Source: a virus. From it: a DNA stretch of 64,000 bases. Made by a program: the position numbers and the translations under genes. The notes under the pieces are model-generated. The model made no database searches, was not told the origin of the DNA, and worked only from the letters and a program-made list of their open reading frames with translations. Shown one piece after another: positions 8,590 to 42,315 of the stretch. How positions within the stretch are numbered: the stretch's first letter is position 1; every line of letters begins with the position of its first letter. Where the stretch lies: positions 8,256 to 72,255 of the IMG/VR virus record IMGVR_UViG_3300004369_000010; one strand, written 5' to 3'.

Positions 8590-8597
8590 TCAGTTCA

Positions 8598-10873: not shown

Positions 10874-10875
10874 AA

Positions 10876-19024: not shown

Positions 19025-19097
19025 TTTTTCGTCCTCAGAAAGCAAGATAGGAAGGGCATTTTGCCCTCCCTATCTTACAACTTTGCTAAGTGCCTAA

Positions 19098-20651
19098 TCA
19101 GAAGGTGTTCAGAAAAGCCGTAAATTGCTCGTTACCTGCGGGATCATACAGGGGCCATTGCTCAGCAAGCCAACTATGCGCCTCCGCATGAGTCTTGCCA
19201 TAACGCTTCATATACCAGGCTTTCAGGATGAAGCCAGTTCGGCTACGGCCAGCATGGCAATGAACAAGAACATCACGACCCTCACTCAACCAAGCATCAA
19301 TAGTCTGAAGACAATCCCAAACAACCAGACCCAACTCGTGGTTGTCAACAGAGTTATCAATCAAGTAGATCTCTCGCCTAACAGGAACATGATCAATATG
19401 CCCGAATGTTCGGCACAATGACAAAACAGCCGTATCCGGGCTAACAGTTTTTGCTCCCCCCAAATTTGACGCGTAGACTCCAGTAGCGTCCACCTTGGCA
19501 GGTAGAGCAACAGGCTCTTCCAATGTCTGAGGAACAACGTTTAAGTTGATCAGGCTTCTAGCAATATCACTTAACTTGGCGTAATTATATGCAAGCCGCG
19601 AAGGACGCTTATCCCCCTTTTCATTGAATGGAGAATCAACATGACCATTCAGATATGTCGTGAAACGAGAAGGGATCGCTTGAATCCCGTACAGCGATCC
19701 AGCCAGCGCGCCAGCAACACACGCTACAGTATCGGTATCTCCGCCCAAGTTAATTGCTGACACGACTGCATTTTCAAATCTTTCACTGAGCGGTATACCA
19801 AATTCGGAATTTTTTACAGCCCAGTACGCTTGCGCAAGACAAACCCACGCTGAACCATTTGAACCTTCAAGCAAGGCTGAATTGGGTTCATCAGGTGAAT
19901 AATCTTCTAGGATTGAATACGCAAAGGTGATCGGATCACAATCAACCGATTCCTCAATGTAGTCGTATGTTTTAGATTGGGTCATTGCATCAATTGCGGC
20001 TTCCATCATTCCGTATGCTGAAACCGCATCTCCAACAATTGCTGATCGAATCATGGTCGCAGCAAGACCGGCACACAGCGCTCCGCGGACGTCATAATGA
20101 GTCAAGCGCGCTTGGCGAAACGCAACAGAAAATGTGTCTGCAGCGCTGTAACGGGAACCCCAAATTCCAATTGGGCTTACTCGCATCACCGATCCGTTGC
20201 CTCCACTTGCACCACGCTTTGCGTGACCTATGGCAGCAGCGTCTATATAGTTGTGTCCACTGTACAAAGCGCTGGCTGTAGTCGTTCCAACATCGCGCGC
20301 TGTTTTCGCCCAATGAACAAACCGGTTAAATATGTCATCAGGGCTGTAGGAAAGATTATTGGCAATCAATGATTCGGCAATACACAATGCCATCTGCGTA
20401 TCATCAGTGAACTCGGCGGGTTTCCAGCCGAAACCGCCACCGCCAACCATCTGCCCAATACCACCGTGTTTTCCTAATCCGGGGAATTTGTCATATTGGT
20501 TTGCTGGACCAAACTCAAACGGTGCGCCCAGAGCATCGCCAACAGCTTGACCCACTAAAGCGCCTATCGCAAAGGGCTTGTACTCATGTAGGTCATCATT
20601 AGTAATTCGTTTTGGGGATGGGGATTTAAATGTAGTTTCAAGTAATGTCAT
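19098..20651 (-). CDS. ADP-ribosylglycohydrolase (DraG/ARH family) fused to dual-specificity (CX5R) phosphatase
   Basis: GDALGAPFEF, TDDTQMA, GNGSVMR and GGDTDT motifs; C-terminal VHCHAGRSRTG. Confidence 0.9.
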   Translation of the reverse strand: MTLLETTFKSPSPKRITNDDLHEYKPFAIGALVGQAVGDALGAPFEFGPANQYDKFPGLGKHGGIGQMVGGGGFGWKPAEFTDDTQMALCIAESLIANNLSYSPDDIFNRFVHWAKTARDVGTTTASALYSGHNYIDAAAIGHAKRGASGGNGSVMRVSPIGIWGSRYSAADTFSVAFRQARLTHYDVRGALCAGLAATMIRSAIVGDAVSAYGMMEAAIDAMTQSKTYDYIEESVDCDPITFAYSILEDYSPDEPNSALLEGSNGSAWVCLAQAYWAVKNSEFGIPLSERFENAVVSAINLGGDTDTVACVAGALAGSLYGIQAIPSRFTTYLNGHVDSPFNEKGDKRPSRLAYNYAKLSDIARSLINLNVVPQTLEEPVALPAKVDATGVYASNLGGAKTVSPDTAVLSLCRTFGHIDHVPVRREIYLIDNSVDNHELGLVVWDCLQTIDAWLSEGRDVLVHCHAGRSRTGFILKAWYMKRYGKTHAEAHSWLAEQWPLYDPAGNEQFTAFLNTF

Positions 20652-20690
20652 GTCAACATGATAGTTGCGAGGACAGGCTTTGACAACTTT

Positions 20691-21767
20691 TTAGAGATAA
20701 TTATCAAACACATTTGACCAGGTAGAAGCCATATTTTTGACATCCAGCTCATTTTTTACGATTTCCAGTTGCTCTTTGGCTTCCTTGGATCGCACACCTA
20801 TATGGCACAACTCCTCCAGGTGTTCCGTCCACTCTTCTTTTGTTGACGCGAGTCTGCCGATTCCGTACTCGTCCTTTAGGCGTCTATATTCTCCGACATC
20901 TGACGCAACAAAGGGGATTCCAGCTGATGCGTATTCAATCCCTTTAATCCATGACTTGGCCCAGTTGAAAGGAATGTCGTTCAGCGGAGCTAAACCAATG
21001 TCAAACTGAAACGACAGTTTCGCGTATTTCTGGGGATGATGCATGGGTGTTTTGCTAACTTTGTCCCGAGGTATGCCAACTCGATCAGCGAACCAAACTG
21101 CTGAGTCAACATGGCCAGAGTGGTGACAGCGAAATCCCTTACTACCTAGAACACCCTGAAGAAGTTCCAGGTCGCCTGAACGGTGAGAAGTTGATCCGAC
21201 CCAACCGACAACAGGTTTTTTATTACGGAAATATCGCTTATCGAAATCAGCGACCGTTACACAATTATGAACTAGATGAACATTTTTGCAATTGAATTCA
21301 TTTTTCATCTTGTTGAACAAAAAAGGAGTAGACGATATTACCCCGTCACCCAATTGAATTATTTTTTTGTAATGTTCAATATTTTCGTCTTTATTGAAGT
21401 CGGGGTGCGTCAGTTTGTATGCATGGTTATCCTCATGTAAACCCCAGTACCAGTCATCAATATCGTTAAGAATTACTGGTCCATTTGGATTTCTGTTCTC
21501 CAGCTTTTCTACGAGCGCACCAAACATCAACCGCTGTAACACAATAATGTCGCAGTCGTAATGGGTGTTACCGAACCAGTCAATAACGCCCATTCCCTTG
21601 TCTTTATGATGCACTAGCAAACCCGTTACAGACGGATGCTTAAGGTGTGGCCTATTTTGTTGTAGTCGAACCCAATTAGACCCACCTGGAACTGGACCCT
21701 GATCCGTTGTAAGCGTGCGCGACCAATCAGTTGAAGCGATACCAATTTTTACTCTTTTGCCCATCAA
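20691..21767 (-). CDS. GT-B glycosyltransferase
   Basis: DIDDW, VGWVGSTSH..DL, DIGLAPL...FNWAKSWIKGIEYASAGIPFVASDVGEY. Confidence 0.85.
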   Translation of the reverse strand: MMGKRVKIGIASTDWSRTLTTDQGPVPGGSNWVRLQQNRPHLKHPSVTGLLVHHKDKGMGVIDWFGNTHYDCDIIVLQRLMFGALVEKLENRNPNGPVILNDIDDWYWGLHEDNHAYKLTHPDFNKDENIEHYKKIIQLGDGVISSTPFLFNKMKNEFNCKNVHLVHNCVTVADFDKRYFRNKKPVVGWVGSTSHRSGDLELLQGVLGSKGFRCHHSGHVDSAVWFADRVGIPRDKVSKTPMHHPQKYAKLSFQFDIGLAPLNDIPFNWAKSWIKGIEYASAGIPFVASDVGEYRRLKDEYGIGRLASTKEEWTEHLEELCHIGVRSKEAKEQLEIVKNELDVKNMASTWSNVFDNYL

Positions 21768-21829
21768 TTAATCTCCAAGCGTTACCAACGCTGAGACTAT
21801 AGCAAATCCATGTCAAACGGTATTTGGTG

Positions 21830-22000
21830 TTAGTTATTGTTATTGCCCTGGCGGCCACGCAAGCGACGACCAACTCCGCGTGAGCCACGAGCCAAAGCCC
21901 TCAACATTGCCGCCAAAGCACGACGCCACCACGACGGTCGACGACCATCACGTGCATCTGGGCTAATTTCCTCATCAGGCAAGTTATTAGGGGTGGGCAT
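21830..22000 (-). CDS. small Arg-rich protein (56 aa, below ORF-track cutoff)
   Basis: MPTPNNLPDEEISPDARDGRRPSWWRRALAAMLRALARGSRGVGRRLRGRQGNNNN; GGAGA upstream; fills the gap. Confidence 0.6.
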   Translation of the reverse strand: MPTPNNLPDEEISPDARDGRRPSWWRRALAAMLRALARGSRGVGRRLRGRQGNNNN

Positions 22001-22051
22001 TTCTTCTCCGTCCGACTGAACAAGAATAGCATCTCAGCACCAACAAGAATT

Positions 22052-22612
22052 TTACCGATCTGGATTGGGTGGCCTTTCAATGAATCCCGCCTGCTCGGTA
22101 AGGCTGGCTGGGGCTTCAACCGGAACCCATGCTTGTGAGTACTTGTGTTGGGCAACTTTCCGGTTCTTAATGAGAGTGCCATCAATCATTAGATCAATTT
22201 CATCATTCCTCATGACAAGCATCCTCTTTAAATCGGTTTCCGCATAGCGGCCCGACATAATGATGTCCCTAAAAATGCGAGACATCCTTTTCGCCTGAGT
22301 TGCCCCCTTGGCCCTATTCAGGCGGAGATGCAGAAGCATCGCATCAATATCGCCACAGTCTTCATAGATCACTGGAACTAAGCCCTTGTATGTTTTTCTA
22401 ATGGACTTTATTGAACCCGCAATCTCCCAGCGATAGTGACCATCAATGATGACACCCTTGGACTTCTGAACCACAATAGGTTGCAGCCATCCATAGTCGT
22501 CCATGGAGCGTGCGAGTACCTCCAAGTCGGGGGCCAACACATATGATGCCCGCCACGAAGCAGGCTTTAAAGTTGAGCCATCAACCCACACAATATTTTC
22601 ATTCGGCTTCAC
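22052..22612 (-). CDS. ParB/Srx-like protein (IbrB-like)
   Basis: GWLQPIVV...IIDGHYRW...LNRAKG. Confidence 0.85.
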   Translation of the reverse strand: MKPNENIVWVDGSTLKPASWRASYVLAPDLEVLARSMDDYGWLQPIVVQKSKGVIIDGHYRWEIAGSIKSIRKTYKGLVPVIYEDCGDIDAMLLHLRLNRAKGATQAKRMSRIFRDIIMSGRYAETDLKRMLVMRNDEIDLMIDGTLIKNRKVAQHKYSQAWVPVEAPASLTEQAGFIERPPNPDR

Positions 22613-22614
22613 AT

Positions 22615-23778
22615 TTACCTCAAATCATCAACGGAATCAAGGGCATCCAAACTAGCCATTTCCTGTGCCTCTTCCATCTGAATCGTATACGCACGAGTCT
22701 TCGGCCCAATCGGATTGACAGAAGTGATATTAAACTCGTTTAACAAAATATTTCTAATCAGCCAATGTATCGGATACGAATTCGGATCCTTGGCATGCTT
22801 CTTCCTAAACTCCGCTGCGAATGCCATAGCCCGTTTCTTTAAGCCAGGCGTTAGCACATTATCGTCAATGCACAGACGTACGCCCTTCCACCCATCACGA
22901 GCGTACATCTTGATCATTTGTTCAACGTCAAACTCCGCCCAGCATCTCCTCTGCGCATCAATTTGCGGAAAGCATTCGTACAGTCGGTCATAAAACTCAG
23001 GCTCCGTAGCAACAACATCACCAATACGGCGAATGGCAACAGCGTGCAAAGGAATACCCACTCTGGTATTTGAGCCAGTAATCGCTGCGAGGTCATAGTA
23101 CTCGCAGTATGAGGCGTTGTGTTCTTCCGTGATGAACTTGAGAACATCGTCAGTCGTCCAGTCATAAATCACCTTCGCAAATCTCAGCGGAATTGACTTC
23201 TTCATACGAAACGGTACATTGATGTAGTTCTCATGCAACTTTTGAACACACGACCGATATCGGATCATTGACTCATTTGCTCTAACGCCAGTAATAAACG
23301 CCGTTCTACCCTTCTTGCCCTGCATTGTGTAATAGTCAATTGATTCGGGAATTGCTTGGGACGGATTTAAACCGAAATGTTCAGCCGTAATCGCCCAATG
23401 TGGCATATCTCGATAAAGACGCCCCTCTTTTGCTCGTTTCGGAGACCAGAGAAGACAATACTCCCTCCTACCCAGCACCCAGATTTCTTGGCCCTGAGGA
23501 AGGCAATACCACTCCATATCAACCCAGTCGTAGTTTCGCACCTCCTCAATAAATGACAACACCGCTGGAGAAACCATCTCTTCATCACGGAAAATAACCT
23601 TCACAGGTCCGAGGTTCCGTTCCTCGTGAATTTCCTTGGCTAGGTACAAGATCGCTGTTGAATCTTTGCCTCCAGAAAACTGCACGCAAACGGTATCAAA
23701 TGTGTCGTAAACATGGCGCATTCGCTCGCGCGCCGCATCAACACAGTTGATATCAAGAAACATACGTTGCCGAGTCAT
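22615..23778 (-). CDS. PAPS-reductase/PP-loop family protein (IbrA-like)
   Basis: FSGGKDS PP-loop, GVRANESMIR, IYDWTTDDV. Confidence 0.85.
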   Translation of the reverse strand: MTRQRMFLDINCVDAARERMRHVYDTFDTVCVQFSGGKDSTAILYLAKEIHEERNLGPVKVIFRDEEMVSPAVLSFIEEVRNYDWVDMEWYCLPQGQEIWVLGRREYCLLWSPKRAKEGRLYRDMPHWAITAEHFGLNPSQAIPESIDYYTMQGKKGRTAFITGVRANESMIRYRSCVQKLHENYINVPFRMKKSIPLRFAKVIYDWTTDDVLKFITEEHNASYCEYYDLAAITGSNTRVGIPLHAVAIRRIGDVVATEPEFYDRLYECFPQIDAQRRCWAEFDVEQMIKMYARDGWKGVRLCIDDNVLTPGLKKRAMAFAAEFRKKHAKDPNSYPIHWLIRNILLNEFNITSVNPIGPKTRAYTIQMEEAQEMASLDALDSVDDLR

Positions 23779-24326
23779 AAGGCTTCTTTGGGCATCAAAT
23801 TTTTGTGGATTTTACGTAGCCGCTCTAGACGCTCAACACGAATGTTTTTCTTGATGTTAATATGCGATCCCGGTTTTGCTCCGAGCATCTCAGCAATTTC
23901 TGTTTTTTTGAAACCAATATCAACTAGATCCTTCACAAGTTGCTTGGCTTCGCCTGCTGGAACCCACGAATACGGGTGCGGATCAATTGCAGCAACACCA
24001 AGTATGCGGTCACTTGTATTTTTACGAATCTGGTCGCACTTGCCCTGTCGAATTCGTAGAAGCCTAGATACAGCAACTCCTGAGCGTTCAGAAATCGTTC
24101 GTAACCCGATCTTCTTTTGCCCCAAAAACAGTAAGTGAATTCTGGCATTCCTAGCATTTACCATTCGTACGGGTCGAGCCTCAATGCCTAATTTTTCTCT
24201 ACGCCGTTCGCGAGACATGTTCAATTCATACACTCGGTGCGCCTCTTTGCACTCATTACACCTACATCCACTTGCATAGGTTGAATGTCTGCCATGAGTG
24301 ACAGGCTTCCGACTATTTGCTGTCAT
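23775..24326 (-). CDS. zinc-ribbon plus HTH DNA-binding protein
   Basis: HG..STY..GCRCNECKEA followed by HTH-like segments (LRTISERSGVAVSRL; KTEIAEMLG). Confidence 0.7.
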   Translation of the reverse strand: MTANSRKPVTHGRHSTYASGCRCNECKEAHRVYELNMSRERRREKLGIEARPVRMVNARNARIHLLFLGQKKIGLRTISERSGVAVSRLLRIRQGKCDQIRKNTSDRILGVAAIDPHPYSWVPAGEAKQLVKDLVDIGFKKTEIAEMLGAKPGSHINIKKNIRVERLERLRKIHKNLMPKEAL

Positions 24327-24335
24327 ATTTAATCC

Positions 24336-25106
24336 TCAGAAGTCAGCGTGCGCGTCAATAAAATTCATAAGCCGTTGCGCTGTTGTATCACCATCAATTG
24401 ATGGCTCCGTTCTCAACCAACGAATAAACGAATACCATTTAGCCTGCTGGTCAGCATCATCAAAAACCAAAGAGTATTGAACGACGGCTTTAGTTGATCC
24501 AGACGCACCAATACCAGTGCTTCCCGTCGCCGCAACAGAACGAGCGTCAACATTCATTGATGGAACAATCTTCGCCCCATCTTCAGTCTGCTCTACAGCA
24601 ATGTTTTGAATTGGTGCGGAATCTGGGTTAACAATCACGGGCGCTACATATCCCGACTCTTCAAGCGAGTCCAATCTGCTTGCCTGAATATCCAACGCTG
24701 CTAGCTCAAACTCATCCCACTGAAGATCAACGAGCAGATCTGAATACGACTCAACTACCGTACCCAGCATGTCGTTCAGAAGTTGAGGGTCGGTATAACC
24801 CAACTCAGTCGTGCGATTATCTGCCAGAGCAAAAGCTACAGCCTCCTGTTCGGACGAATCAAAAATAACAGCAGCTATCTTTGACCATCCCAACTGCCTT
24901 GCAGCCCGCACCTGATGATTGCCCGCAATGACCGTATAGGTCCCATCAGTATTATCCCGAACTACAATTGGTCGAAGTTGTCCGAATTGCTCATAGGACG
25001 CAACAATTGCATCAACATTGCCCTTTCGAGGGTTGCCCTCAAGATGAACCAGTTTGTTTAAATCTATTGTTAACGCCTCTAGCGATTTATCAATTTTTTC
25101 CGTCAT
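24336..25106 (-). CDS. ParB N-terminal domain protein
   Basis: NPRKGNVDAIVASYEQFGQLRPIVV...VIAGNH...ALADNRT. Confidence 0.85.
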   Translation of the reverse strand: MTEKIDKSLEALTIDLNKLVHLEGNPRKGNVDAIVASYEQFGQLRPIVVRDNTDGTYTVIAGNHQVRAARQLGWSKIAAVIFDSSEQEAVAFALADNRTTELGYTDPQLLNDMLGTVVESYSDLLVDLQWDEFELAALDIQASRLDSLEESGYVAPVIVNPDSAPIQNIAVEQTEDGAKIVPSMNVDARSVAATGSTGIGASGSTKAVVQYSLVFDDADQQAKWYSFIRWLRTEPSIDGDTTAQRLMNFIDAHADF

Positions 25107-25107
25107 G

Positions 25108-25575
25108 TCATACTCCTAGTTCCATGTCCGAAACTTCAACAATGTCAACTTTAGCGCTGAACAGAAACTCTCGCACCCTGTTCCAATCCTTGTAGGACGA
25201 GTCCGAAAAGCACACCACTTTACGAACGCCAGAACTCGCAATTTGTTTAGCACATCCAAAACATGGAGGTCCGTTGACTATCAATGTCGCCCCTGCTCTT
25301 TGGGCAGGATCAGTCCACAATAGAGCATTAGCCTCTGCGTGCTGAGCGATGCAATTATCGTAAACACTACCGTTAGCCGAATTCATACTTAACCTTGGGC
25401 AGAAACCTTCCGAGCAATGGCCCATCCCTGGGGGCGAACCGTTATAGCCGAAACCAATTACTCGCCCAGTTTCTTCCAAAACAACAGCGGCATATTGCTT
25501 TTTGGAACAGGTTGAAAACTGATGGGCCATCACCGGCAACACCTTCAACCAATTCCGTTCACGACGCAAAATCAT
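25108..25575 (-). CDS. dCMP deaminase
   Basis: GYNGSPPG, HAEANAL, PCFGC. Confidence 0.9.
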   Translation of the reverse strand: MILRRERNWLKVLPVMAHQFSTCSKKQYAAVVLEETGRVIGFGYNGSPPGMGHCSEGFCPRLSMNSANGSVYDNCIAQHAEANALLWTDPAQRAGATLIVNGPPCFGCAKQIASSGVRKVVCFSDSSYKDWNRVREFLFSAKVDIVEVSDMELGV

Positions 25576-25916
25576 GAACTTACTTGCTGTCTCACATTTG
25601 CCGCCAATGTCCGCAACGCATCAATACTCGTCCTCAATGAAGACAACTTCTCGCGTTTTGCTTTCACCAAGGCCTCGGACACCTTCCAAGCAAAAATTTC
25701 GCTCTCTAACTTATAATCCGACCAGGCTTCCCGTTCCCGAATTGACCCCTTCGCCGACAAGTACTCTTTCGCCCAAGCCGACTTATAGGTCGCTTCCTTG
25801 TTCGCTGCATCCTGTGCAAGAACCTCAAAGGTTTCGGTTTCATCTTCTAACATGCCCGTCAAGCGAAGAATTTCTTCTTCAATCTCAACTTGGCTAATAG
25901 GTGCGGATCGACGCAT
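25572..25916 (-). CDS. helical protein, possibly UvsY-like recombination mediator
   Basis: coiled-coil pattern near recombination genes; family call is weak. Confidence 0.4.
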   Translation of the reverse strand: MRRSAPISQVEIEEEILRLTGMLEDETETFEVLAQDAANKEATYKSAWAKEYLSAKGSIREREAWSDYKLESEIFAWKVSEALVKAKREKLSSLRTSIDALRTLAANVRQQVSS

Positions 25917-25935
25917 ACTTCTCCCTCAAACTTAG

Positions 25936-26163
25936 TTAGTTGATAATTTTAAAAATTGTTGACCACAACATTGGCCACTCAGTTGAATGTCTCACCAAGA
26001 TTCGTCGATGCCACGTTGGGTTAGAACCCTCTTCTAGAACCCTCATACGAAGTTCATCAATCAGCAACTCTAATTCGTTGACCTTCTCCCGAGTCATACA
26101 AAGTTCTTCCTCCAACCGCATCCGCGACACTTGAAGGTCACCAATAATTGCATCATGTTCCAT
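25936..26163 (-). CDS. hypothetical protein
   Basis: ATG at 26163 with GAGGA upstream; overlaps the RuvC-like stop. Confidence 0.55.
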   Translation of the reverse strand: MEHDAIIGDLQVSRMRLEEELCMTREKVNELELLIDELRMRVLEEGSNPTWHRRILVRHSTEWPMLWSTIFKIIN

Positions 26164-26680
26164 AGCGTTCCTCCACAACCGACCAGTCAACTTTGTCCAA
26201 GGCCAACCTGTTACCACTTGGCCACTGAAACCGTTCCGTTCCCATTAAGCATCGCCCCATTTCCTCCAAAATCCAGGCATCACACATATCATCTGCACCG
26301 GAACCTGACCAAACAATTCCCGTTCTGGCTGATACAGCAGAAAGCACCTCGGCCTTACTTGAGTTCCCCTTCCCCGTAGCAAACTTCGCCCTAGCCGTAG
26401 GGGCCACCTCGGTAAACGGGATCCCTGCACGCCACAAACTCACCCTCACAACACCACCAAGTTCTCCGATGGAATGCGCTTGACTATTGCGACTGGAAAA
26501 AGAGTAACCCTCCACGACAACTGCTGGATTCTCGGCCTGCCTTACGACACCTAATATTTCTTCGGACATGATATGAAGCCGTTCAGCTCCCTTTTTGTTA
26601 GTTGAGATACAGGTAGTTGTATCGTTACCCGAAATGCCCGTTGATGTCAACGACAAATCCAAACCAAAAACTGTAATCAC
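26153..26680 (-). CDS. ruvC: RuvC-like Holliday junction resolvase
   Basis: GLDLSLTSTG, VVVEG, KFATGKGNSSKAEV, DDMCDA. Confidence 0.85.
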   Translation of the reverse strand: MITVFGLDLSLTSTGISGNDTTTCISTNKKGAERLHIMSEEILGVVRQAENPAVVVEGYSFSSRNSQAHSIGELGGVVRVSLWRAGIPFTEVAPTARAKFATGKGNSSKAEVLSAVSARTGIVWSGSGADDMCDAWILEEMGRCLMGTERFQWPSGNRLALDKVDWSVVEERYGT

Positions 26681-27399
26681 TACGAATCCTTCAAAAAGTT
26701 CAGAACATGTTTGGGGCGACGACGCCTATTGAATGCCCAAACTTCTTTCCATCTTTGGGGTCCCGTAATTACATGAAGTTGCCCATATCGCTCTCTTTCG
26801 CTAATTAGTGGAGTCTTCTCAATTTCACCAACGCTGAACCGAGTCTCAGAAGGATGGTAAAACTTCACCTGATAAATAGGTGAGTCTTGAGATATCCGCA
26901 CCCACTGGTTAAACTCAACCCTAAACGCATACGATGTTCCGCGAAACCACTCGTAAATATTGAACTGACCTCGAATGGGTTCTGGATTGGTCTGACCCTG
27001 GGCGGATTGAACCGTCATCACAACATCAGGATCATCCGAAATAAATATCCAAAACGGCAACAAACCTAACTGAACAATCCCATGTTCAATGTCTGCGGTA
27101 TTCAGCACTCTGCCCAAAGAGGCTGAAGGGAGGGAGCAGTTTTCCTCATCAAACTCCACATACATATGCCCGTGATCGTCTTGCACCACCCTAAAGCGCA
27201 AATCGTAATTAACCGAAATGTTAAACGCTGACAATACATAGTCATTGAATGCTGGACATCGCCGCGCATCCCCATCAACAGGGATCGTTTCTCTCACGGG
27301 GTGAAAAGCGGGATGAGCCGCCAATGTGGCCCCAATGTCTGTTGAGCCTCCCGCTGCACAGTAACCGACCCTAATCATCGCCTTGTTCTTCCCAGCCAT
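26680..27399 (-). CDS. hypothetical phage protein
   Basis: 239-aa ORF coupled to neighbours; RCPAFND and GQFNIYEWFR motifs. Confidence 0.6.
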   Translation of the reverse strand: MAGKNKAMIRVGYCAAGGSTDIGATLAAHPAFHPVRETIPVDGDARRCPAFNDYVLSAFNISVNYDLRFRVVQDDHGHMYVEFDEENCSLPSASLGRVLNTADIEHGIVQLGLLPFWIFISDDPDVVMTVQSAQGQTNPEPIRGQFNIYEWFRGTSYAFRVEFNQWVRISQDSPIYQVKFYHPSETRFSVGEIEKTPLISERERYGQLHVITGPQRWKEVWAFNRRRRPKHVLNFLKDS

Positions 27400-27721: not shown

Positions 27722-27724
27722 TTT

Positions 27725-27922
27725 TTAGGATTCCGTTGGTGAACTAGCTTCTGGCGAACCACGACGCTTGTTGCGCCATTCCTTCATATAGGTTCGCTGA
27801 TATTCCTTATTGCCCTCAATGCACGGTTGACAGCGACAACCGCGTACATAACCTGTTCGGTTGTGTACAAGCTTTCTCGCTGTTTTCACTTCAGTGCTTT
27901 CGGGGTTTGTGGCGGTGTTCAA
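27725..27922 (-). CDS. small zinc-ribbon protein
   Basis: HNRTGYVRGCRCQPC. Confidence 0.6.
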   Translation of the reverse strand: MNTATNPESTEVKTARKLVHNRTGYVRGCRCQPCIEGNKEYQRTYMKEWRNKRRGSPEASSPTES

Positions 27923-28422: not shown

Positions 28423-28429
28423 GGCTGGC

Positions 28430-29197
28430 TCACTTACCCCACGCTGGGCATGCTGATTTGAACGCACACCAATTGCAAAGCGTTGATTTGACTGGCTCAA
28501 AATTTCCTGTCTCACAGCGATGATCTATTCCTTCTTTTGTTTTAAGAATTACCTGTGTGGCATCTTCTATTCGTTTTGTTGTGACTTGCCTAGATAATAC
28601 GACCGGCTTTTTAAGGTATATGAGATCAAGTCGTTTTGCTTCACCTATACCCATGCTTAGCATCAGCGCGGCATAAACCGAAAGTTGGAAAAACTTATCC
28701 TCTTCCCACTTAGCCGCTGGAACCTTGCCCGTTTTGTAGTCGGAAATAACAATTTTCCCATCAGTTTCATCAACTGTAAACCTATCAATGAAACCCTTGA
28801 GTTGAACTCCTTCTACCGACCCATTAAGTTCAAACTCAATGCCGTCTAATTCTGTTTCAGTAGGCTTTTCTACTTTCCACAAGTTTTCAATACAAAACCA
28901 AGCGTTCCACCGAAAATTGTTAAAAGCAGTCGGATGGACATAGCCTTCTACCTCCATTACATACTTGTCATCCCAGATTTTTCTAGCAATGTTTCGTGCC
29001 GTCTGCTGATCGCGCATATCTGGATCAGTTGCATATAAAACTTCTAGCACTTCATGAACGAAATTTCCAAGCAAACTTGCCTCGCTGGGCGGCTCTGGAA
29101 GTCGATCAATACGCGAATATTTAAACCGCAATGGACACTGTTTGAAGGTGTTGATAGACGACGGCGACAAATATTCAGGCGCTTTAAGTGCTGACAC
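28430..29197 (-). CDS. Cas4/RecB-like PD-(D/E)XK exonuclease
   Basis: LSPSSINTFKQCP, GNFVHEVLE, GFIDR, DYKTG, QLSVY, CNWCAFKSAC. Confidence 0.9.
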   Translation of the reverse strand: MSALKAPEYLSPSSINTFKQCPLRFKYSRIDRLPEPPSEASLLGNFVHEVLEVLYATDPDMRDQQTARNIARKIWDDKYVMEVEGYVHPTAFNNFRWNAWFCIENLWKVEKPTETELDGIEFELNGSVEGVQLKGFIDRFTVDETDGKIVISDYKTGKVPAAKWEEDKFFQLSVYAALMLSMGIGEAKRLDLIYLKKPVVLSRQVTTKRIEDATQVILKTKEGIDHRCETGNFEPVKSTLCNWCAFKSACPAWGK

Positions 29198-29883
29198 TAC
29201 TCAGACACCTCTTCATTTTCAATGATTTCCATTCCACCCAGAATCAACCGAGTCGTTTCAATCGTAACCGCCTCCAAGTCCGTCAATGTCCACTCGCCAA
29301 CATTCTTCGGCACTGGACGGCCTCCGCTGTATGACAACCAAAATTGCTTAAGTTTGGGTTTGTCATCATCGGGAAGTTCGTTTCGGAGTTCCATAAACCG
29401 CTCGTATGCGCTGGTGACAGCAGGATCCACGGGGAGAGGAGCAGATTCCATCGCTAACTCAATTTCCATCGCTTCAATATCCCGAGCCAAATAAAGACCT
29501 ACACCGAACTGTTGGAGGGCTTTCTTCGTAGCATCCGAAACAGCGCCCTTGAACTCGTCACCCAAATCAACGATCTCATTGTCTTTACGAGAACGCTTGA
29601 TTTTTTGCCCACCAAAACCATCATGAATGACATGACGACCATCAATATGCGCGCTAACACGAACATGAGCAACAACCCAGTCGGGATCTGACTGATCTCG
29701 TTCGCAACGAAGAATCTCGCTTGACCACCCACCGACACCAAGAACACGGTTCATTCGATTCGTTACTTCCGCAATTGGAAGGTATGTAAGTGATGCTCCA
29801 CCCTTACTGACCGTGCGCTCCATCTCCTGAGGAAACGGCTCACTCAAACGCTCATACACCTGATCCATGACTTTTCCTTTCAC
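29197..29883 (-). CDS. Rad52/Sak-like single-strand annealing protein
   Basis: LTYL...VTNRMNRVLG..GWS and KGAVSDATKKALQQFGVGLYL. Confidence 0.85.
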   Translation of the reverse strand: MKGKVMDQVYERLSEPFPQEMERTVSKGGASLTYLPIAEVTNRMNRVLGVGGWSSEILRCERDQSDPDWVVAHVRVSAHIDGRHVIHDGFGGQKIKRSRKDNEIVDLGDEFKGAVSDATKKALQQFGVGLYLARDIEAMEIELAMESAPLPVDPAVTSAYERFMELRNELPDDDKPKLKQFWLSYSGGRPVPKNVGEWTLTDLEAVTIETTRLILGGMEIIENEEVSE

Positions 29884-30383
29884 TTAGCCTTCCGCAGGCT
29901 GATTTTGGGTACAGATTCGCCAGACTCACAATAATCATCGGCATCTACGCCAATTTCTCGCAACGTTGTTACTTTCCAATACGAAATTCCTGCGAACTGA
30001 AGTAGTTTCGTAATCATCTCTTTTGTTGACAACTTGATTTCTCCAGTATCAAGATCAACAGCCATACGCTCAATGCGCTCTGCGACAACCTCGGCAATCT
30101 CAGCATGACGCCAAGCTTTTCGTGACTTGTCATAAATCTTTTCAACGACGGATCCATCTTCTCCAACAATCGGATCTCTGTCCGCCAGTAGTTGAATCAG
30201 AATCTTTTCCATTTCGCCATACGCCTCAGCCAGGTCAGATTTCAGGTGGCTGATTGCGATCAGAAGTTCACAAGCTGCTTTTTCGCTTAATGATTCGTCT
30301 TCTTTAAGGGCTGAAACTCGATCATAAAAGTCAAGCACTTGCTTATTGAAATCAATAACCCAATCGGGTAGGTTTTCTTGCAA
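29880..30383 (-). CDS. hypothetical protein of recombination module
   Basis: 167 aa; WKVTTLREIGVDADDYCE. Confidence 0.6.
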   Translation of the reverse strand: MQENLPDWVIDFNKQVLDFYDRVSALKEDESLSEKAACELLIAISHLKSDLAEAYGEMEKILIQLLADRDPIVGEDGSVVEKIYDKSRKAWRHAEIAEVVAERIERMAVDLDTGEIKLSTKEMITKLLQFAGISYWKVTTLREIGVDADDYCESGESVPKISLRKAK

Positions 30384-30423
30384 CAGTATCTCCTGACCTA
30401 AACGGGTAGTAACCCCGGTTTTG

Positions 30424-31728
30424 TCAGACGATAATAGCCGCCCGCTTTCTCTGAGGCAACCCTAGACCAGCAAGAAAAGTAAAGGCACTAACCGCCGAGT
30501 CAACTTGGTCATCATGATTAGCGGCTTCTGGGAAGGAAGCAAACTCATCCATCCATTCCGTCAACCAATGCCCTCTAACGACTCGCACATTTCCGTTCGC
30601 AACCGCTGCCGCAAAAGGACGCGCCCTGGTTAGCTTGTCTCCAGTGGATCGGATACCACTGAAATCGTACCCTGGTACGACATAACGGGCGTATTGGTCG
30701 CAAAGCGCCTTACCAGATGATCCTGGTTCCTGTTCCATTCGAATAGAAACAGCCGGTCCATCTTCGTAGGCGGTTTGGGCTATTAGTTGTTCAACTTTGT
30801 CACCTTTAGCACGTATTTTTTTTACATCTAAGATATAAGCAATTCCTTGGTCAAACAGCATGAGGGTCCCGACAGTCCAGTCAGGATCAGGATTGCTCTG
30901 AGAAGGTTCAGTGGCCGCCAAGTCCCAAAACCGTACAATTCGGGCAGAAGAACTGATCTGGGGAACCTCGTGACCGTCAATGATGATAAAAGACTCCCGC
31001 TCGAAGAGCGATCCAAGTGTCGTTGACCACCAATCACCTTCCTCTAGACGGCGGCGCTCAACCGGATCCAAGGCTTGCAGGGACTGTCGATAGGATTCAG
31101 CGTCAATACCTGGGTTGTCGGTCAGTTTAGAGGGTACAAAAATTCTGCCGGTGGAATGTCCTTCCACGATGAAGCGTTGTCGAACCCAGTTGGGGGCTGG
31201 GTTTGAGGCAGCCCTCATGCGCAGTGGCACCTTGGCTAACGGTCCGGATGCTGGACGGCGAAGTCGAGAGAATAGGTAACGATAATCGTTCTCCCGTATT
31301 TCTGTAACTTCATCCATGCCTATGAATTGAAATTCAGCACCCTTATATCGAAGATAGTCCTGGCTGTTGTTCAAATATCCGAATGAAATACGAGCTCCCG
31401 ATGGAAACATGGCTGTATAATTATTCGCGTTCCATCTAATATCATCATACTGAGCAACCCACGACTGAAAGCGATCCATGATCGCTCCAGGGAGTGCCAG
31501 GTCTGCATAAGTGCGACGGAAAAGAATAGCCGAATAACCAGGCGTGTCAACAAACTGCAATGCCGCCATAAGGAGAGCACTTGACTTGCCACCACCAGCG
31601 GCACCCCCAAACAAAGCCTCCAAAGAATTTGTCCTCAGAAACACTTTTTGAGTGACGGATGCTTCCTCTGGACAAAATAAAGGTTTCTTGGGTTCCAGAA
31701 ATTCTAAAACCTGTTTCCAGTCAGCCAT
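30424..31728 (-). CDS. terL: terminase large subunit
   Basis: Walker A FGGAAGGGKS, Walker B FIGMDE, ASNP coupling motif, RFWDLAA, EQEPG, HDDQVDS. Confidence 0.95.
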   Translation of the reverse strand: MADWKQVLEFLEPKKPLFCPEEASVTQKVFLRTNSLEALFGGAAGGGKSSALLMAALQFVDTPGYSAILFRRTYADLALPGAIMDRFQSWVAQYDDIRWNANNYTAMFPSGARISFGYLNNSQDYLRYKGAEFQFIGMDEVTEIRENDYRYLFSRLRRPASGPLAKVPLRMRAASNPAPNWVRQRFIVEGHSTGRIFVPSKLTDNPGIDAESYRQSLQALDPVERRRLEEGDWWSTTLGSLFERESFIIIDGHEVPQISSSARIVRFWDLAATEPSQSNPDPDWTVGTLMLFDQGIAYILDVKKIRAKGDKVEQLIAQTAYEDGPAVSIRMEQEPGSSGKALCDQYARYVVPGYDFSGIRSTGDKLTRARPFAAAVANGNVRVVRGHWLTEWMDEFASFPEAANHDDQVDSAVSAFTFLAGLGLPQRKRAAIIV

Positions 31729-31784
31729 AAGCCCTCCGGTTTACACAATTAGGTTAGTATAAATCTAGAAAGATGAGGTAGACG

Positions 31785-31985
31785 TTGAAACGACTGGCAA
31801 ATCGGACACGAAAAACAGCTTTTTGGATCAAAAATCGCAATTGGCGAGGTATAACCGCCAATATCATGATGCTTTCATTTATAATTTTTACATCGGTTGG
31901 TGCGGCTTTGCTGTTGCCTGCCGCAGGTTTTATAACCGCAGGCATTGCTTGTGGCATGTTCGGCTACCTACTGGGGTCTGATTAA
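31785..31985 (+). CDS. small two-TM membrane protein preceding portal
   Basis: two hydrophobic segments; ends 2 nt before the portal ATG. Confidence 0.6.
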   Translation: MKRLANRTRKTAFWIKNRNWRGITANIMMLSFIIFTSVGAALLLPAAGFITAGIACGMFGYLLGSD

Positions 31986-31987
31986 AG

Positions 31988-34228
31988 ATGGCATGGAACT
32001 CTCGGCAGACCAAGAACCTCGGTAGCGACACCAGTTCAAAAGCGATGCCACTAGGTCCTGGAGCGCCAGTATCCGTAAACACGGGTCTAGCAGGTCGTGC
32101 CTATCGTGACTCCTGGGATATTGAACGCGCATATCGCGAGGGTATGCAAAAGGTTGTCTGGGTAAATCGATGCATTGATGCAATCGCTGGAAACCAAGCC
32201 CGACTTCCAATGATCCTCCGTAAGGACAACAGCCCAAACGGTCAAGTAATAGATCGCAAACATGCCCTACTAGACATCTTCAACTCAAAAGCCAATATTG
32301 GCGAAAACGCTTTCGTCTTCCGATACAGAGTTTCCAGCCAGTTACTTATGTCATCTCGTGGCGTTTTTATTGAAAAAGTCTACGGACGCGATGGTGGAAT
32401 CATCGCACTAAACCTGCTACCACCACAGCACACATCGCCAATCCCAGATCCAAAGCGTTTCGTTGCTGGATACCAGGTTGATCTCCCCTCTGGACACAAG
32501 CAAATCGTCAAAGCCGAAGATGTGGTGTGGATTCGTCGTCCACACCCGTTAGATCCGTACCTATCTCTTACGCCCATGGAATCAGCGGGTATTGCAATTG
32601 AGATTGAAAACCTGGCTCGGATCTACAACCGAAACTTCCTTCTCAACGATGGTCGGCCTGGAGGACTACTCGTTCTCCGAGGTGAAATTGACGACGACGA
32701 TAAAGACGAACTCAAGAGCCGTTTTAGAGGAAACCTCAATCGGGCTGGTTCCGTATCGGTTATCTCATCAGACGACGGCGCTGATTTCATTGACACCGCT
32801 TCCAACCCCAGAGATGCCGCCTATGTACAAATGCGTCAACTCACCAAGGAAGAAATCCTCGCAGCTTTCGGTGTACCCGAATCGGTAATTGGCAACGCAT
32901 CTGGTCGAACATTCTCAAACGCCAATGAAGAAATGCGTGTCTTTTGGATGGAAACCATGATGCCCCATCTGGAGCCAATCGCGCGAGCCTATGATGAACT
33001 TGACCCCAAGTACTACATTGATTTCGATACCAGTGATGTTCCAATCCTGATCATGGCCAAACAGGAGCGGGAACGCTACCTCATGGACGAATTCAACAAT
33101 GGTCTAATTTCAGCAAACGAATATCGTGAAGGTAGCGGGCGCAAAACGCTTGACTCCGAAATTGCCGATCAACTACTCAATAGCCCACAATTGGTTCCAA
33201 TTGCCAACACAGAAAAACCTTTCAGTATTGAAGAGCAAACCCCCATTGCTGAGGCAGGAGCAATACCTGGCGGGCCAGATCAAATGCCCCCCAGAGGAGA
33301 ACAAGCACCTCCCCCTGGCCCTGGCGGTGAACCAGGTGGCCCAGGAACAGCGCCTGGCGGTAGCCCCACCTCACCAGCCGCCGAAACACCCGCTACCGCA
33401 ATTGAACCAGTTCCCGAAGGTCAACTATCTGCTGGCTACGGTGGCATAGAAACCAAAACTGCTGATACAGCGGCTTACTACGATGAATGGGACACGAAGG
33501 CCGAACAAAGCGTAGATCGTTGGACAGAGATCCTGGATGCGTCACTTGAACGAATCTTTCAGCGTCAGCAACGGGTAGTTCTTGAAAAGGCTTTTGGCGC
33601 AAAAGCACGCAAGGCGATGAAGGACAACTCACTCACTGTTGAAACAGTCTTTGACATTGACGCATGGAATCGTCAGTTGCGAGATGACATCACGCCAGTG
33701 ATCAACGGAATCATCGCTGATGCGTCCGAAAATGTTTCGTTAGAAGCCAAAATGGACTCAACGCCCGATCCAGTTGAAGCGGCTGAATATGTTGAGTCTC
33801 AAATGACTCGCATGGAAAAAGTGAACGAAACCACCAAGGAAGAAATCTCTGCAGCTCTTCTCGTCGCTATGGCGCTCGGCGCAGAGGAAGACGAACAGAG
33901 GAACAGTCTTCTTCGAGCAGCGCTAGCAGCAATCTTCGCCAACCTTCTCGGTAAGAGGCGCCGCATTATTGCCGAACACGAATCATCAACGGCTTTCAAT
34001 GCTGGAACATATCTTGCTGGTCGGCAAATTGGCTCTTTGTCAAAGCGTTGGGTTAGCCGACGAGATGAACGTGTACGCGACGCTCACCGTGTTCTAAACG
34101 GCCAAAAGGTTGGATTGACAGAAACCTTCAATGTTGGTGGTTTTCCTCTCCGCTTTCCTGGTGATCCCTTGGCTCCGCCGTCGCTCACCATCAACTGCCG
34201 TTGCCGTCTACGGTTCACTAATGACTAA
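31988..34228 (+). CDS. portal protein (HK97-like) fused to MuF minor head domain
   Basis: VNRCIDAIA, FLLNDGRPGG, ILAAFGVP, ISANEYRE; Pro/Gly linker; C-terminal KRWVSRRDERVRDAH...FPGDP...INCRC. Confidence 0.9.
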   Translation: MAWNSRQTKNLGSDTSSKAMPLGPGAPVSVNTGLAGRAYRDSWDIERAYREGMQKVVWVNRCIDAIAGNQARLPMILRKDNSPNGQVIDRKHALLDIFNSKANIGENAFVFRYRVSSQLLMSSRGVFIEKVYGRDGGIIALNLLPPQHTSPIPDPKRFVAGYQVDLPSGHKQIVKAEDVVWIRRPHPLDPYLSLTPMESAGIAIEIENLARIYNRNFLLNDGRPGGLLVLRGEIDDDDKDELKSRFRGNLNRAGSVSVISSDDGADFIDTASNPRDAAYVQMRQLTKEEILAAFGVPESVIGNASGRTFSNANEEMRVFWMETMMPHLEPIARAYDELDPKYYIDFDTSDVPILIMAKQERERYLMDEFNNGLISANEYREGSGRKTLDSEIADQLLNSPQLVPIANTEKPFSIEEQTPIAEAGAIPGGPDQMPPRGEQAPPPGPGGEPGGPGTAPGGSPTSPAAETPATAIEPVPEGQLSAGYGGIETKTADTAAYYDEWDTKAEQSVDRWTEILDASLERIFQRQQRVVLEKAFGAKARKAMKDNSLTVETVFDIDAWNRQLRDDITPVINGIIADASENVSLEAKMDSTPDPVEAAEYVESQMTRMEKVNETTKEEISAALLVAMALGAEEDEQRNSLLRAALAAIFANLLGKRRRIIAEHESSTAFNAGTYLAGRQIGSLSKRWVSRRDERVRDAHRVLNGQKVGLTETFNVGGFPLRFPGDPLAPPSLTINCRCRLRFTND

Positions 34229-36153
34229 TGGCCCCACGCAGACCTCTTCGTATAGAGCCGTACAATAACGATGCGGTAGATGCCGACAATGACGGCATCG
34301 TCCAAGAAGACACAGCCTGGGAACGCCCAGCAGGAACTCGCCTCCTTGATGCGCTAGGTCAAGCAATCCGCAACGGGATGACTTCCCAAAGTCGCCCATC
34401 GGGAATACGAGTCGTTGACCGAGACGGTAATCCTGTGGCCTACAAGCCACGAGCAACCCCGGTTGGCAAAACACCCAAACCTAGAAGTCCGCTTGGCCCC
34501 ACATTGGGTGATAGGCAAAGAACTCTGGGAGAAATGATCCCGTCACTAGGACAAACCATCGGCACTCTTGAAGATCGACGCAAGCCGAAACCAATCAGAG
34601 TCAGTCAGGAAGATGCCAAACCGCGTCAGGCTGAACCCCCAAGAAAGTTCACTGTTCCAACATTTACCGCGCCTCTGCTTGGCGAGCAACTCATGTCCAA
34701 ACCTGGATTCACATCGAAAGATCTGTTTGATAAGGACACTGGACGGTACATCAAGGAACGACGCAAACTTCATCGTTCAATTGTTGGGTTTTATCTGCAG
34801 AAGGCAAAGCCCAGATCTCCAGAATCGCAAGAAGAAAAAACTGTTTGGTTTTTGGGTGGTGGCGCTGGTTCAGGTAAATCTAGCGCGATCAAGAGCGGCG
34901 CTATTGGTGTCCCGTCCGACCTGCTTCGCGTAGATCCAGACGAAATAAAAGATTTCATTCCCGAATATCGCACATGGCTATCTGGTGGCGACGGACGAGC
35001 GGCAGAGTTCGTCCACGAAGAATCAAAACACATTTTTGAGCACACCGTTCACGGTTTGGTGCAGCTCAACGCCGACTTTGTGTATGACACAACCGGTAAT
35101 GGTTCTTACGACAAAATGGCAAAGAAGGTTCAAGACCTTCGGCGCAACGGCCATGTCATCAAAGCCCGATATATGACCATCAGCATTGACGAAGCGATTC
35201 GACGCGCAGAACTCCGTGAACAAACGACTGGCCGTCGTGTTCCACGACATCAAATCATTCACAACCACCAAGAAGTATCCACCAATGTGATTCGTGGTAT
35301 TGCTGACGGACTATTTGATGAACTTGAGTTATACGATAACGACGGATCGCAACCAACAAAGATCCTTGAAGTTAAGAATGGCAAAGTCAAGATCCTTGAC
35401 CCGCAAGCCGTTGACCGATTCATGGCGAAATCCCCTTCGTTGAGTCGATCCCCTGGCAAGACTCCAGCAGGAGTTCATGAAGATCTTGAAAAAGGAAAGT
35501 CAGCTTCCAATGTTCTGGGACAAACTTCCAGGGTCGATGCCAGAACCGCGTGGGCTGGATACCTTGCAGATGACTACAAAGAAATGAACTATGTGCTTCG
35601 TGAAGGTGGAGACGGTCTATCCGACGAGGAATACAACGAGGTAGCACAGAAAATCAACGATTTTGATGAGTACTTTGACCACGCAAGTTTTTCACTGATC
35701 CAGCCTGTGAAGGTGTACAGAGGAACTCAGGAATACCTTTCGGATGACATTGATGTTTCTGAACTTGCCCCTGGTGAGGTGTACAAACTTTTATCCGCTC
35801 CTGAGATCGGAACCAAGTTTCGCGAAGATGCCTACTCCTCGGCTACTGAAAGTCTTGATATTGCCGAAGACTTTGCACTCGGGAAGGCCGATGTGGAATC
35901 CCTGAGCTATTCGGAAGGGCCATCTATTCCCGTTGTGATGGAAATTAATATTCCTCCCGGTCTCAGGATGCTTCCAGGAACCACATATGAGAAAGAAGTG
36001 ATCCTTGAGCGGGAAACACGGTTCAAAGTTGTTGACTACATCACGCAATACACAGAAAGTGGCGATTCCTATCAGTTGTTGAAAGTTGTTGCAATTCCTC
36101 CTCGCAAAAAGCAACAGCCACTAGAACTAGCGGAGATTGATGATGACTACTAA
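34228..36153 (+). CDS. Zeta-toxin-like P-loop kinase fused to VIP2-like (R-S-E) ADP-ribosyltransferase
   Basis: GGGAGSGKSS, VDPDEIK, VHEES, YDTT, RREQTTGRRVP-like kinase motifs; YKEMNYVLR, VYRG, YSSAT, EKEVIL ART motifs. Confidence 0.85.
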   Translation: MAPRRPLRIEPYNNDAVDADNDGIVQEDTAWERPAGTRLLDALGQAIRNGMTSQSRPSGIRVVDRDGNPVAYKPRATPVGKTPKPRSPLGPTLGDRQRTLGEMIPSLGQTIGTLEDRRKPKPIRVSQEDAKPRQAEPPRKFTVPTFTAPLLGEQLMSKPGFTSKDLFDKDTGRYIKERRKLHRSIVGFYLQKAKPRSPESQEEKTVWFLGGGAGSGKSSAIKSGAIGVPSDLLRVDPDEIKDFIPEYRTWLSGGDGRAAEFVHEESKHIFEHTVHGLVQLNADFVYDTTGNGSYDKMAKKVQDLRRNGHVIKARYMTISIDEAIRRAELREQTTGRRVPRHQIIHNHQEVSTNVIRGIADGLFDELELYDNDGSQPTKILEVKNGKVKILDPQAVDRFMAKSPSLSRSPGKTPAGVHEDLEKGKSASNVLGQTSRVDARTAWAGYLADDYKEMNYVLREGGDGLSDEEYNEVAQKINDFDEYFDHASFSLIQPVKVYRGTQEYLSDDIDVSELAPGEVYKLLSAPEIGTKFREDAYSSATESLDIAEDFALGKADVESLSYSEGPSIPVVMEINIPPGLRMLPGTTYEKEVILERETRFKVVDYITQYTESGDSYQLLKVVAIPPRKKQQPLELAEIDDDY

Positions 36154-42298: not shown

Positions 42299-42315
42299 AT
42301 TGATCCTTTTGACAG

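Follow-up and report, generated by a model that had tools for sequence, protein, structure and literature searches.

A stretch of viral DNA of 64,000 nucleotides (the window), bases 8256-72255 of the 72,255-bp record IMGVR_UViG_3300004369_000010 (handle G000; CheckV completeness 49%), encodes two fused enzymes and a small conserved open reading frame (ORF) that may together make up a three-part toxin-immunity system, a reading to which we give an even chance. Its parts would be a packaged effector (P0002) joining a Zeta-like P-loop kinase to an ADP-ribosyltransferase (ART), a 94-aa structural inhibitor encoded at the end of the effector gene, and an eraser (P0001) in which an ADP-ribosylhydrolase (ARH) is fused to a Cys-based phosphatase (Table 1). 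Such a system would be a known kind of toxin-immunity scheme in a new form. A preliminary description of the window had paired the two fusions as writers and erasers of matching marks; the 94-aa ORF, overlooked there, is on structural modelling a more direct candidate for self-immunity than the ARH-phosphatase.

A kinase-ART effector with conserved catalytic residues

Both enzymatic halves of P0002 lie above the Pfam gathering cut-offs, Zeta_toxin (PF06414) at 5e-24 (85.3 bits against 22.3) and ADPrib_exo_Tox (PF03496) at 2.2e-12 (47.2 bits against 23.4), and their key residues are invariant or nearly so in 10 aligned relatives: the Walker A motif G210-K217 and D236/D238 in the kinase, and R498, S538, E588 and E590 (the EKE loop) in the ART, whose motif residues (Arg, Ser-x-Ser, Glu-x-Glu) are kept in the related phage G001. 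The AlphaFold2 (AF2) model, with a predicted local distance difference test score (pLDDT) of 73.9 and values below 50 at residues 1-60 and 72-150, matches AvrRxo1 (2.2e-10) and zeta (2.4e-9) in Foldseek, followed by CDTa, iota (Ia), Vip2, Vis and C3. A phmmer search of P0002 against the sequences of the Protein Data Bank (PDB) found no match; a profile search did, aligning the Walker A motif and the catalytic Asp region of the kinase to zeta (1gvn). The earlier assignment of this gene to a Zeta-like kinase and an R-S-E ART with an EKE loop is thus borne out by Pfam, by residue conservation and by the structure model, all enzymatic activities named here being predictions from such features.

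The likeness of the kinase to zeta and to AvrRxo1 is about equal, in the alignment as in Foldseek. At the site aligned with the GTxR motif, which we take to be the UDP-GlcNAc-binding motif of zeta and PezT, Thr and Gly are kept, Glu is replaced by Asp and Arg by Asn; the kinase substrate may therefore differ from that of zeta. The fusion of kinase and ART is rare, being present in nine of 34 search hits by precomputed domains and in a tenth by our own scan, and in P0016 the order is reversed, with the ART preceding Zeta. Relatives were found with alignments as query, single-sequence scans of viral contigs having given nothing; the Zeta-ART alignment recovered no loci from genomes and four from metagenomes, none of them long enough to reach an ARH-phosphatase.

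A shared leader and a plausible route into the virion

The effector gene follows that of a portal-MuF fusion (P0003), whose TAA stop shares its A with the effector ATG (TAATG). P0002 itself has no MuF match in Pfam, the MuF domain sitting on the upstream portal protein; it is matched by PHROG 16619, ‘minor head protein’, at 2.3e-26, its homologues P0015 and P0017 are MuF-Zeta fusions, and in the related phage G003 the Zeta protein is encoded directly upstream of the major capsid gene. A zeta-like kinase as MuF cargo has been noted earlier (PMC5512222).

In the first ~100-110 residues of the effector (window 34228..34557) an E-P-Y motif precedes an acidic D-x-D-x-D-G stretch, and this leader is common to 33 proteins (also P0018-P0036 and P0164-P0174), five of which carry Zeta or Zeta-ART and 28 no Zeta or ART Pfam domain; the C-termini of these 28 are PI3/PI4-kinase-like, RNase T, DUF3626, DUF7178 or unknown. 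The leader is duplicated in longer homologues and in the 1344-aa version of G001, and a protein atlas search with it gave no usable match. The same leader on exchangeable C-termini is the pattern expected of a trafficking leader with swappable cargo; judged by sequence, it is probably the packaging or injection tag of a polymorphic family of phage effectors. Delivery of the effector with the virion, as the preliminary description had proposed, is plausible because of the stop/start overlap with the portal-MuF gene, the shared N-terminal leader and the MuF-Zeta homologues.

A small protein modelled over the two active sites

A homologue of the 94-aa ORF occupies the same position in G001 (locus L002) and in a metagenome contig (L070), that is, in all three loci with readable DNA 3' of the Zeta-ART gene; the ORF itself matches no known family. 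An ORF 3' of the ART gene of G003 was considered as a relative and rejected (hhalign probability 0.07). Modelled together with the effector, the 94-aa protein reached an interface score (ipSAE) of 0.66 against 0.11 for the best of three controls, part of which may reflect likeness to known structures since zeta-epsilon and ART-immunity complexes are already solved; of solved complexes 58 of 80 attain the mark applied, as do 2 of 110 mismatched pairs. Contacts agree between runs to at least 71%, with a partner pLDDT of at least 58. They fall on R498-T502, S537-S540 and E590 of the ART and on residues 213, 237, 288-293 and 336-339 of the kinase. In this model residues 9-24 of the small protein, including an invariant Arg, Phe and Ser, touch the catalytic Arg, the Ser-x-Ser motif and Glu590 of the ART, while residues 59-91 touch the Walker A loop, the Asp region and loop 288-293 of the kinase. 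The model thus supports, and does not show, binding of the 94-aa protein across both active sites.

An ARH-phosphatase in a self-contained cassette

P0001 likewise exceeds the Pfam cut-offs in both halves, ADP_ribosyl_GH (PF03747) at 3.7e-63 (214.3 bits against 26.2) and DSPc (PF00782) at 1.1e-9 (38.7 bits against 33.5). Invariant in 12 sequences are the metal-binding Asp/Thr motifs of the ARH (T82-D83-D84-T85 and D305/D307/T308) and the HCx5R loop of the phosphatase (H464-C465...G468..S470-R471-T472), and the AF2 model (pLDDT 84.9, predicted template modelling score 0.86) forms one compact body; the description of this gene as a DraG/ARH hydrolase joined to a CX5R phosphatase is upheld. In Foldseek the ARH part finds the T. 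thermophilus ARH, DraG, Tri1 and ARH3. Among NCBIfam models Tri1 is best (4e-35, 121 bits against an equivalog cut-off of 490), with DraG at 119 bits against 337, neither cut-off being reached. The proposed match in chemistry between the two fusions also agrees with the folds, the predicted ExE ART resembling CDTa, iota, Vip2 and Vis and the hydrolase lying nearest to the arginine-acting DraG and Tri1.

The gene starts 6 nt downstream of a sigma-A/sigma-70-like promoter, and its mRNA would therefore be leaderless. The promoter reported in the preliminary description is present, at chance level when judged in the window alone: 23 promoter-like sites stand against 24.8 +/- 5.2 in shuffled sequence, and a looser leaderless pattern gives 16 matches against 15.3 +/- 3.7. 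The layout TTGnnn, 16-18 nt, TAnnnT, 6-8 nt, ATG recurs before the start in five of five readable phage ARH-phosphatase genes (window, L006, L009, L008 and L007, the last counting only if the in-frame ATG 9 nt past the first TTG is the start; the motif of L006 was read by eye), against a background of 16 of 4039 ATG/GTG sites in the window. In three of the five copies the upstream DNA does not align with that of the window, and two lie in a different genomic slot. It is this recurrence across phages that lifts the putative promoter above chance.

At the other end, a strong, terminator-like hairpin lies 22 nt past the stop codon. L006 retains the hairpin (-30.4 kcal/mol), both arms of its stem carrying changes, and has a T run after it. 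By its sequence signals the ARH-phosphatase gene would be a self-contained cassette with its own leaderless, host-type promoter and terminator. Elsewhere in the window, TTGACA, 16-18 nt, TAnnnT and 6-7 nt directly precede the ATG or GTG of replication-region ORFs (44201, 47460, 50569, 50677 and 56751); these sites may be leaderless promoters of an early class, and the starts of several ORFs may have to be shifted to these codons. From such promoter sites we infer that the ARH-phosphatase would be transcribed early or constitutively by the host polymerase.

Host origin of the ARH-phosphatase

Proteins with the ARH-phosphatase architecture abound: a search that scored 8000 candidates gave 2371 hits, and all 120 listed have both domains. 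Among the best 80 genome stretches that encode a relative, nearly all belong to Actinomycetota (Ilumatobacteraceae, other Acidimicrobiia, Geodermatophilaceae and Kineococcus; a few labels of metagenome-assembled genomes are doubtful). Clustering of their neighbours places a divergent gene beside the ARH-phosphatase in 27 of the 80 loci, some cluster members being probably antisense artefacts in high-G+C DNA; both scanned representatives are Nudix + NrtR_WHD regulators. An ARPP-1 gene occurs in five of the 80, and vWA weakly. No Nudix or WYL-type regulator was found near the ARH-phosphatase in Pfam and PHROG scans of the window.

In a tree of 47 rows, which retains two probably wrong-frame ORFs on a very long branch (L095 and L097), all ten phage or metagenome ARH-phosphatases form one clade inside the freshwater actinobacterial rows (Shimodaira-Hasegawa-like approximate likelihood ratio test, SH-aLRT, 98). 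The ARH-phosphatase of G001 is 41% identical to that of the window, and the portals are 68% identical. The picture that these sequences suggest is one capture from a host followed by long retention and fast divergence. The host genes belong to the ADP-ribosylglycohydrolase (ARG)-centred system with a rhodanese-phosphatase that Iyer et al. 2022 predicted to counter viral ARTs; in their view the phosphatase deals with ADP-ribose once it is released (PMC9503650, section 3.8).

How the parts may work together

In the three-part reading, the effector, with its disordered leader, Zeta/AvrRxo1-type kinase and arginine-type (ExE) ART, would probably be loaded into the capsid and injected. During its synthesis in the infected cell it would be restrained by the 94-aa product, predicted to place its N-terminal motif in the NAD pocket of the ART and its C-terminal half over the kinase active site. 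The ARH-phosphatase, seemingly an actinobacterial ARG-phosphatase adapted to the phage, would most likely add a second, enzymatic layer by stripping the arginine-linked ADP-ribose laid by the phage's own ART; it would stand to the 94-aa protein as BAH stands to Bsi in the Bxa system. The phosphatase half of the eraser would have come along with the host gene and probably works on a phosphate of released or attached ADP-ribose.

The pairing of ART with ARH is probable, and its evidence comes from other phages as well. The ARH gene stands beside a portal-linked ART gene in six of six scanned loci from records with both families, the ART being a MuF-ART fusion in five. The same head-module cassette recurs in L030, L039, L028, L015, L037 and L041: a terminase, an SPP1-type portal, a MuF-ART fusion and, directly adjoining, an ARH. 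Counted by record, a PF03496 ART also occurs in 21 of 43 ARH-bearing viral records and in 4 of 15 that are at least 90% complete, jumbo phages being mostly without one. ART and ARH together are thus a recurrent phage arrangement of putative writer and eraser. In the lineage of the window itself, kinase-ART and ARH-phosphatase genes are both present in G000 and in G001 (137 kb, 92% complete), where the ARH-phosphatase occupies the same slot, before the adaptor gene; in addition, the Zeta-ART clusters P0006/P0160 and the ARH-phosphatase clusters P0163/P0040 both list contigs of 122,867 and 30,650 bp, which suggests a third phage with both genes.

Several observations weigh against the three-part system. 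The two genes are separated by 13,577 nt and lie on opposite strands in different blocks; in G001 they are ~20 kb apart, and this only if the genome is circularly permuted, and there the Zeta-ART gene is ~60 kb from the portal, so that portal adjacency is not conserved. All co-occurrences belong to one phage lineage and amount to about one evolutionary event. In G003 (58% complete, 86 kb) a Zeta-DUF5824 protein and a separate ART are found and no ARH-phosphatase; the slot for it, bounded by a ParB-like gene and the head-tail adaptor, is empty, the second known ARH-phosphatase slot lying outside the fragment. That second slot is seen in G005 and G006, where the gene sits in the replication region between SLT and DUF932 genes; these fragments, which can be listed on the same side, hold no portal or Zeta-ART and are uninformative on pairing. 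The 94-aa ORF might by itself be enough for immunity. Lastly, at least 512 genome stretches (512 of 600 candidates) encode an ARH-phosphatase relative with no kinase or ART alongside, and a fusion present in hosts that lack these partners needs no phage kinase to explain it.

The writer/eraser idea therefore survives in part. As a pair of ART and ARH it is backed by the recurrent phage arrangement and by experimental precedent (PMC11699363), against which stand the distance of 13.6 kb and the single lineage; the check proposed for it, co-occurrence in related phages, came out positive in G000, G001 and presumably a third phage and negative in G003, which has Zeta and ART with no ARH-phosphatase. 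What falls away is the notion of a mirror image built for this pair, given that the fusion predates the phage, is widespread in hosts with neither a kinase nor an ART partner, and is missing from its slot in G003. The mirror likeness of the two fusions is at least partly an accident of history, and a pairing of kinase with phosphatase is possible but unsupported.

Other readings of the eraser

A possible, though rather unlikely, alternative is that the eraser faces outward, as a captured host ARG-phosphatase with no tie to the phage's own effector that undoes ART-type defence toxins of the host or the ARTs of competing phages (superinfection exclusion). The prediction that the host family counters viral ARTs (PMC9503650, section 3.8) speaks for it, as do the orphan antitoxin-like enzymes against DarTG1 described in phages (PMC11825919), the autonomous cassette found in two different slots of related phages and the distance from the effector gene. 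However, in six other lineages the phage ARH directly adjoins the phage's own ART, PADLOC returned no match to P0001, and the uncultured hosts have no known ART defence.

Less probable still, and in our judgement unlikely, is a dedicated two-by-two pair in which kinase and ART each place a mark and phosphatase and ARH each remove the matching one. The two fusions are kept together in the phages named above, kinase and ART have been joined at least twice and in both orders (P0016), and enzymatic immunity in MuF toxin systems reverses the toxin's own product, as with the Apk2 hydrolase and BAH (PMC11699363); moreover, since the 94-aa protein is predicted over both active sites, both activities seem to need neutralising. 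Against this, the ARH-phosphatase fusion predates the copy in the phage and occurs widely in hosts that have no kinase next to it, Iyer et al. assign the phosphatase to released ADP-ribose (PMC9503650), G003 has a kinase and no phosphatase in its 86 kb, and the kinase is about as similar to zeta as to AvrRxo1, which leaves more than one candidate substrate.

A further idea, which we consider distinctly improbable, is that kinase and ART cooperate on one compound mark, a phosphorylated ADP-ribose; like AvrRxo1, the kinase could produce a 3'-NADP-like donor, or it could phosphorylate ADP-ribose already attached, and the ARG-phosphatase fusions of this phage and of hundreds of actinobacteria would be the matching two-step erasers. 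If so, plain hydrolases could not remove the mark, and the presence of a phosphatase in more than half of host ARG systems would be explained. Least likely of all is a metabolic helper that recycles free ADP-ribose derivatives or feeds NAD salvage within an NrtR-type regulon, without acting on proteins: bacterial homologues do adjoin Nudix + NrtR_WHD regulators and NAD-rebuilding phage pathways are known (PMC13464706), but DraG and Tri1, the closest relatives of established function, have arginine in proteins as their target, and no NAD-salvage gene was found among the 65 window ORFs scanned.

Genomic context, phage and host

Pfam (65 ORFs) and PHROG (35 ORFs) scans give the gene content of the window. 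On the minus strand the large terminase is followed by genes of recombination and DNA metabolism (Rad52, PD-(D/E)XK nuclease, HNH, RuvC, dCMP-type deaminase, two ParB-like and one PAPS-reductase-like), then by a glycosyltransferase (20691..21767), the ARH-phosphatase, head-tail adaptor, neck, sheath, tube, tape measure and baseplate; the plus strand carries, in order, portal-MuF, kinase-ART, two small ORFs, a C5 methylase and the replication region. The 72 kb of the record contain no major capsid gene, and no integrase was found in G000 or G001. The window is best explained as part of a contractile-tailed phage of roughly 125-137 kb that infects freshwater Actinomycetota, the host to which the nearest cellular ARH-phosphatase relatives, a DUF732 lipoprotein and the leaderless promoters all point. 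Near-identical and protein searches of a phage collection found no close relative; one protein search matched only the kinase of cyanophage PSS2, and another matched ARH-only phages. The G+C of the effector gene and that of the ARH-phosphatase gene both match their neighbours.

Other features were noted in passing. Directly 3' of the 94-aa ORF lies a lipoprotein-like ORF (36522..36977) that matches DUF732 weakly and whose signal peptide ends in Cys. The C5 cytosine methylase consists of two ORFs in different frames (37039..37674 and 37686..38600), and the single 410-aa ORF of G001 is 59% identical to the first; this may be either a frameshift or a true split. G+C rises near 40000, from 47.6% (1-40000) to 54.4% (40001-64000), and a strong A-rich, C-rich skew at 38001-40000 coincides with a Q/N/H/T-rich 258-aa ORF (38939..39715). 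A tRNA-Ile gene (anticodon TAT; 42315..42390, minus strand) overlaps the called start of a MazG-like ORF (41969..42382). At 22052..25106, two ParB-like genes flank the PAPS-reductase-like gene (PHROG 2302, 5e-74) and an HNH-like ORF, a set kept in G003 that may be a DNA-modification module. G003 (L004) also encodes a 2154-aa protein with a weak PI3/PI4-kinase match, its Zeta-DUF5824 protein directly 5' of the major capsid gene, and a tyrosine integrase.

Table 1. Positions of the features discussed, in window coordinates unless another locus is named.
Feature	Coordinates	Strand	Remarks
Effector P0002	34228..36153	+	641 aa; ORF coordinates exact
P0002 disordered leader, aa 1-150	34228..34677	+	AF2
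P0002 Zeta/AvrRxo1-type P-loop kinase, aa 193-373	34804..35346	+	Pfam, Foldseek
P0002 R-S-ExE ART, aa 439-619	35542..36084	+	Pfam, Foldseek
Conserved 94-aa ORF	36140..36424	+	overlaps end of effector gene; candidate structural immunity protein or chaperone
ARH-phosphatase P0001	19098..20651	-	517 aa; ORF coordinates exact
P0001 DraG/Tri1-type ARH, aa 30-329	19665..20564	-	Pfam
P0001 Cys-based dual-specificity phosphatase, Pfam core aa 449-499	19155..19307	-	Cys465 at 19257..19259
Putative sigma-A/sigma-70-like promoter, TTGTCA-17 nt-TATCAT	20658..20686	-	ends 6 nt before ATG (GTTGAC-ATG; string 20686..20649)
Terminator-like hairpin, 15-17 pairs	19044..19076	-	22 nt past ARH-phosphatase stop; -29.2 kcal/mol
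Portal-MuF fusion P0003, 746 aa	31988..34228	+	Phage_portal 2.1e-50, Phage_Mu_F 1.6e-9 (Pfam); PHROG portal 1.1e-103
Large terminase	30424..31728	-	
L004 (G003): 2154-aa protein; Zeta-DUF5824 protein; major capsid gene; tyrosine integrase	2495..8959; 9773..11977; 12043..13494; 18433..19560		

Comparison with known systems

The ARH-phosphatase fusion as a predicted anti-viral-ART system is already known (PMC9503650); new here are the 94-aa ORF and the leader family. A kinase and an ART on one chain are not mentioned in the main text of that paper, where ‘zeta’ occurs zero times; its supplements on viral domain contexts may list Zeta-ART or a phage ARG-phosphatase. Taken together, the three-part reading would extend the phage scheme of a packaged toxin with structural and enzymatic immunity to a two-enzyme effector, and would add a small protein predicted to inhibit kinase and ART at once and a new leader by which a family of phage effectors, presumably injected, can be recognised. 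A host system predicted to act against phage ARTs has its central enzyme carried here by a phage, and the case makes it possible to test concretely why coupling to a phosphatase is so frequent among ADP-ribosylhydrolases.

The host ARG systems of Iyer et al. (PMC9503650) share with the window the fusion of ARG and Cys-phosphatase, and the neighbours of the host homologues found here, the Nudix/NrtR regulator, ARPP-1 and weakly vWA, agree with them. These systems are defined by the absence of a coupled ART; the phage copy, in contrast, lacks regulator and chaperones, has a leaderless promoter and shares its genome with an ART. Tre1-Tri1 of the Serratia type VI secretion system and DraT-DraG likewise set an arginine ART against a DraG-type hydrolase, and no NCBIfam model matches the ARH better than Tri1; the window genes, however, are not adjacent and P0001, at 121 bits, stays far below the equivalog cut-off of 490. 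With Zeta-epsilon, PezAT and AvrRxo1-Arc1 the effector has in common a P-loop kinase, its Walker A and catalytic Asp region aligned to zeta, and a small partner predicted over the active site, whereas the window kinase is fused to an ART, has Asn for zeta's Arg, and has a partner with no detectable family similarity.

T4 Alt and the MuF polymorphic toxins also tie an ART or a zeta-like kinase to head proteins as cargo presumed to be injected, with a small ORF 3' of the toxin gene (PMC5576092; PMC5512222). In the MuF toxins of Jamet et al. 2017 (PMC5576092) MuF is the N-terminal part of the toxin, whereas the leader of P0002 is different and not MuF; position beside the portal gene and a small ORF 3' hold for P0002 in the window as well, the portal adjacency being lost in G001, and these phages differ in that no integrase was found in G000 or G001. 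In the Bxa/BAH/Bsi system of the Bacteroides prophage PhiBxa, it was demonstrated experimentally that an ARH (BAH) reverses the mark of the toxin and that a small neighbour (Bsi) blocks the toxin (Alexei et al. 2024, PMC11699363). In the window, by comparison, the toxin lacks MuF, which sits on the portal, and includes a kinase as well, the ARH is joined to a phosphatase and encoded 13.6 kb away behind a promoter of its own, the small protein is predicted over two active sites, and the system is known from sequence and models. The two systems are nevertheless alike in their plan as described there: an ART effector of the head module whose N-terminal carrier is polymorphic, a small active-site blocker and an ARH eraser.

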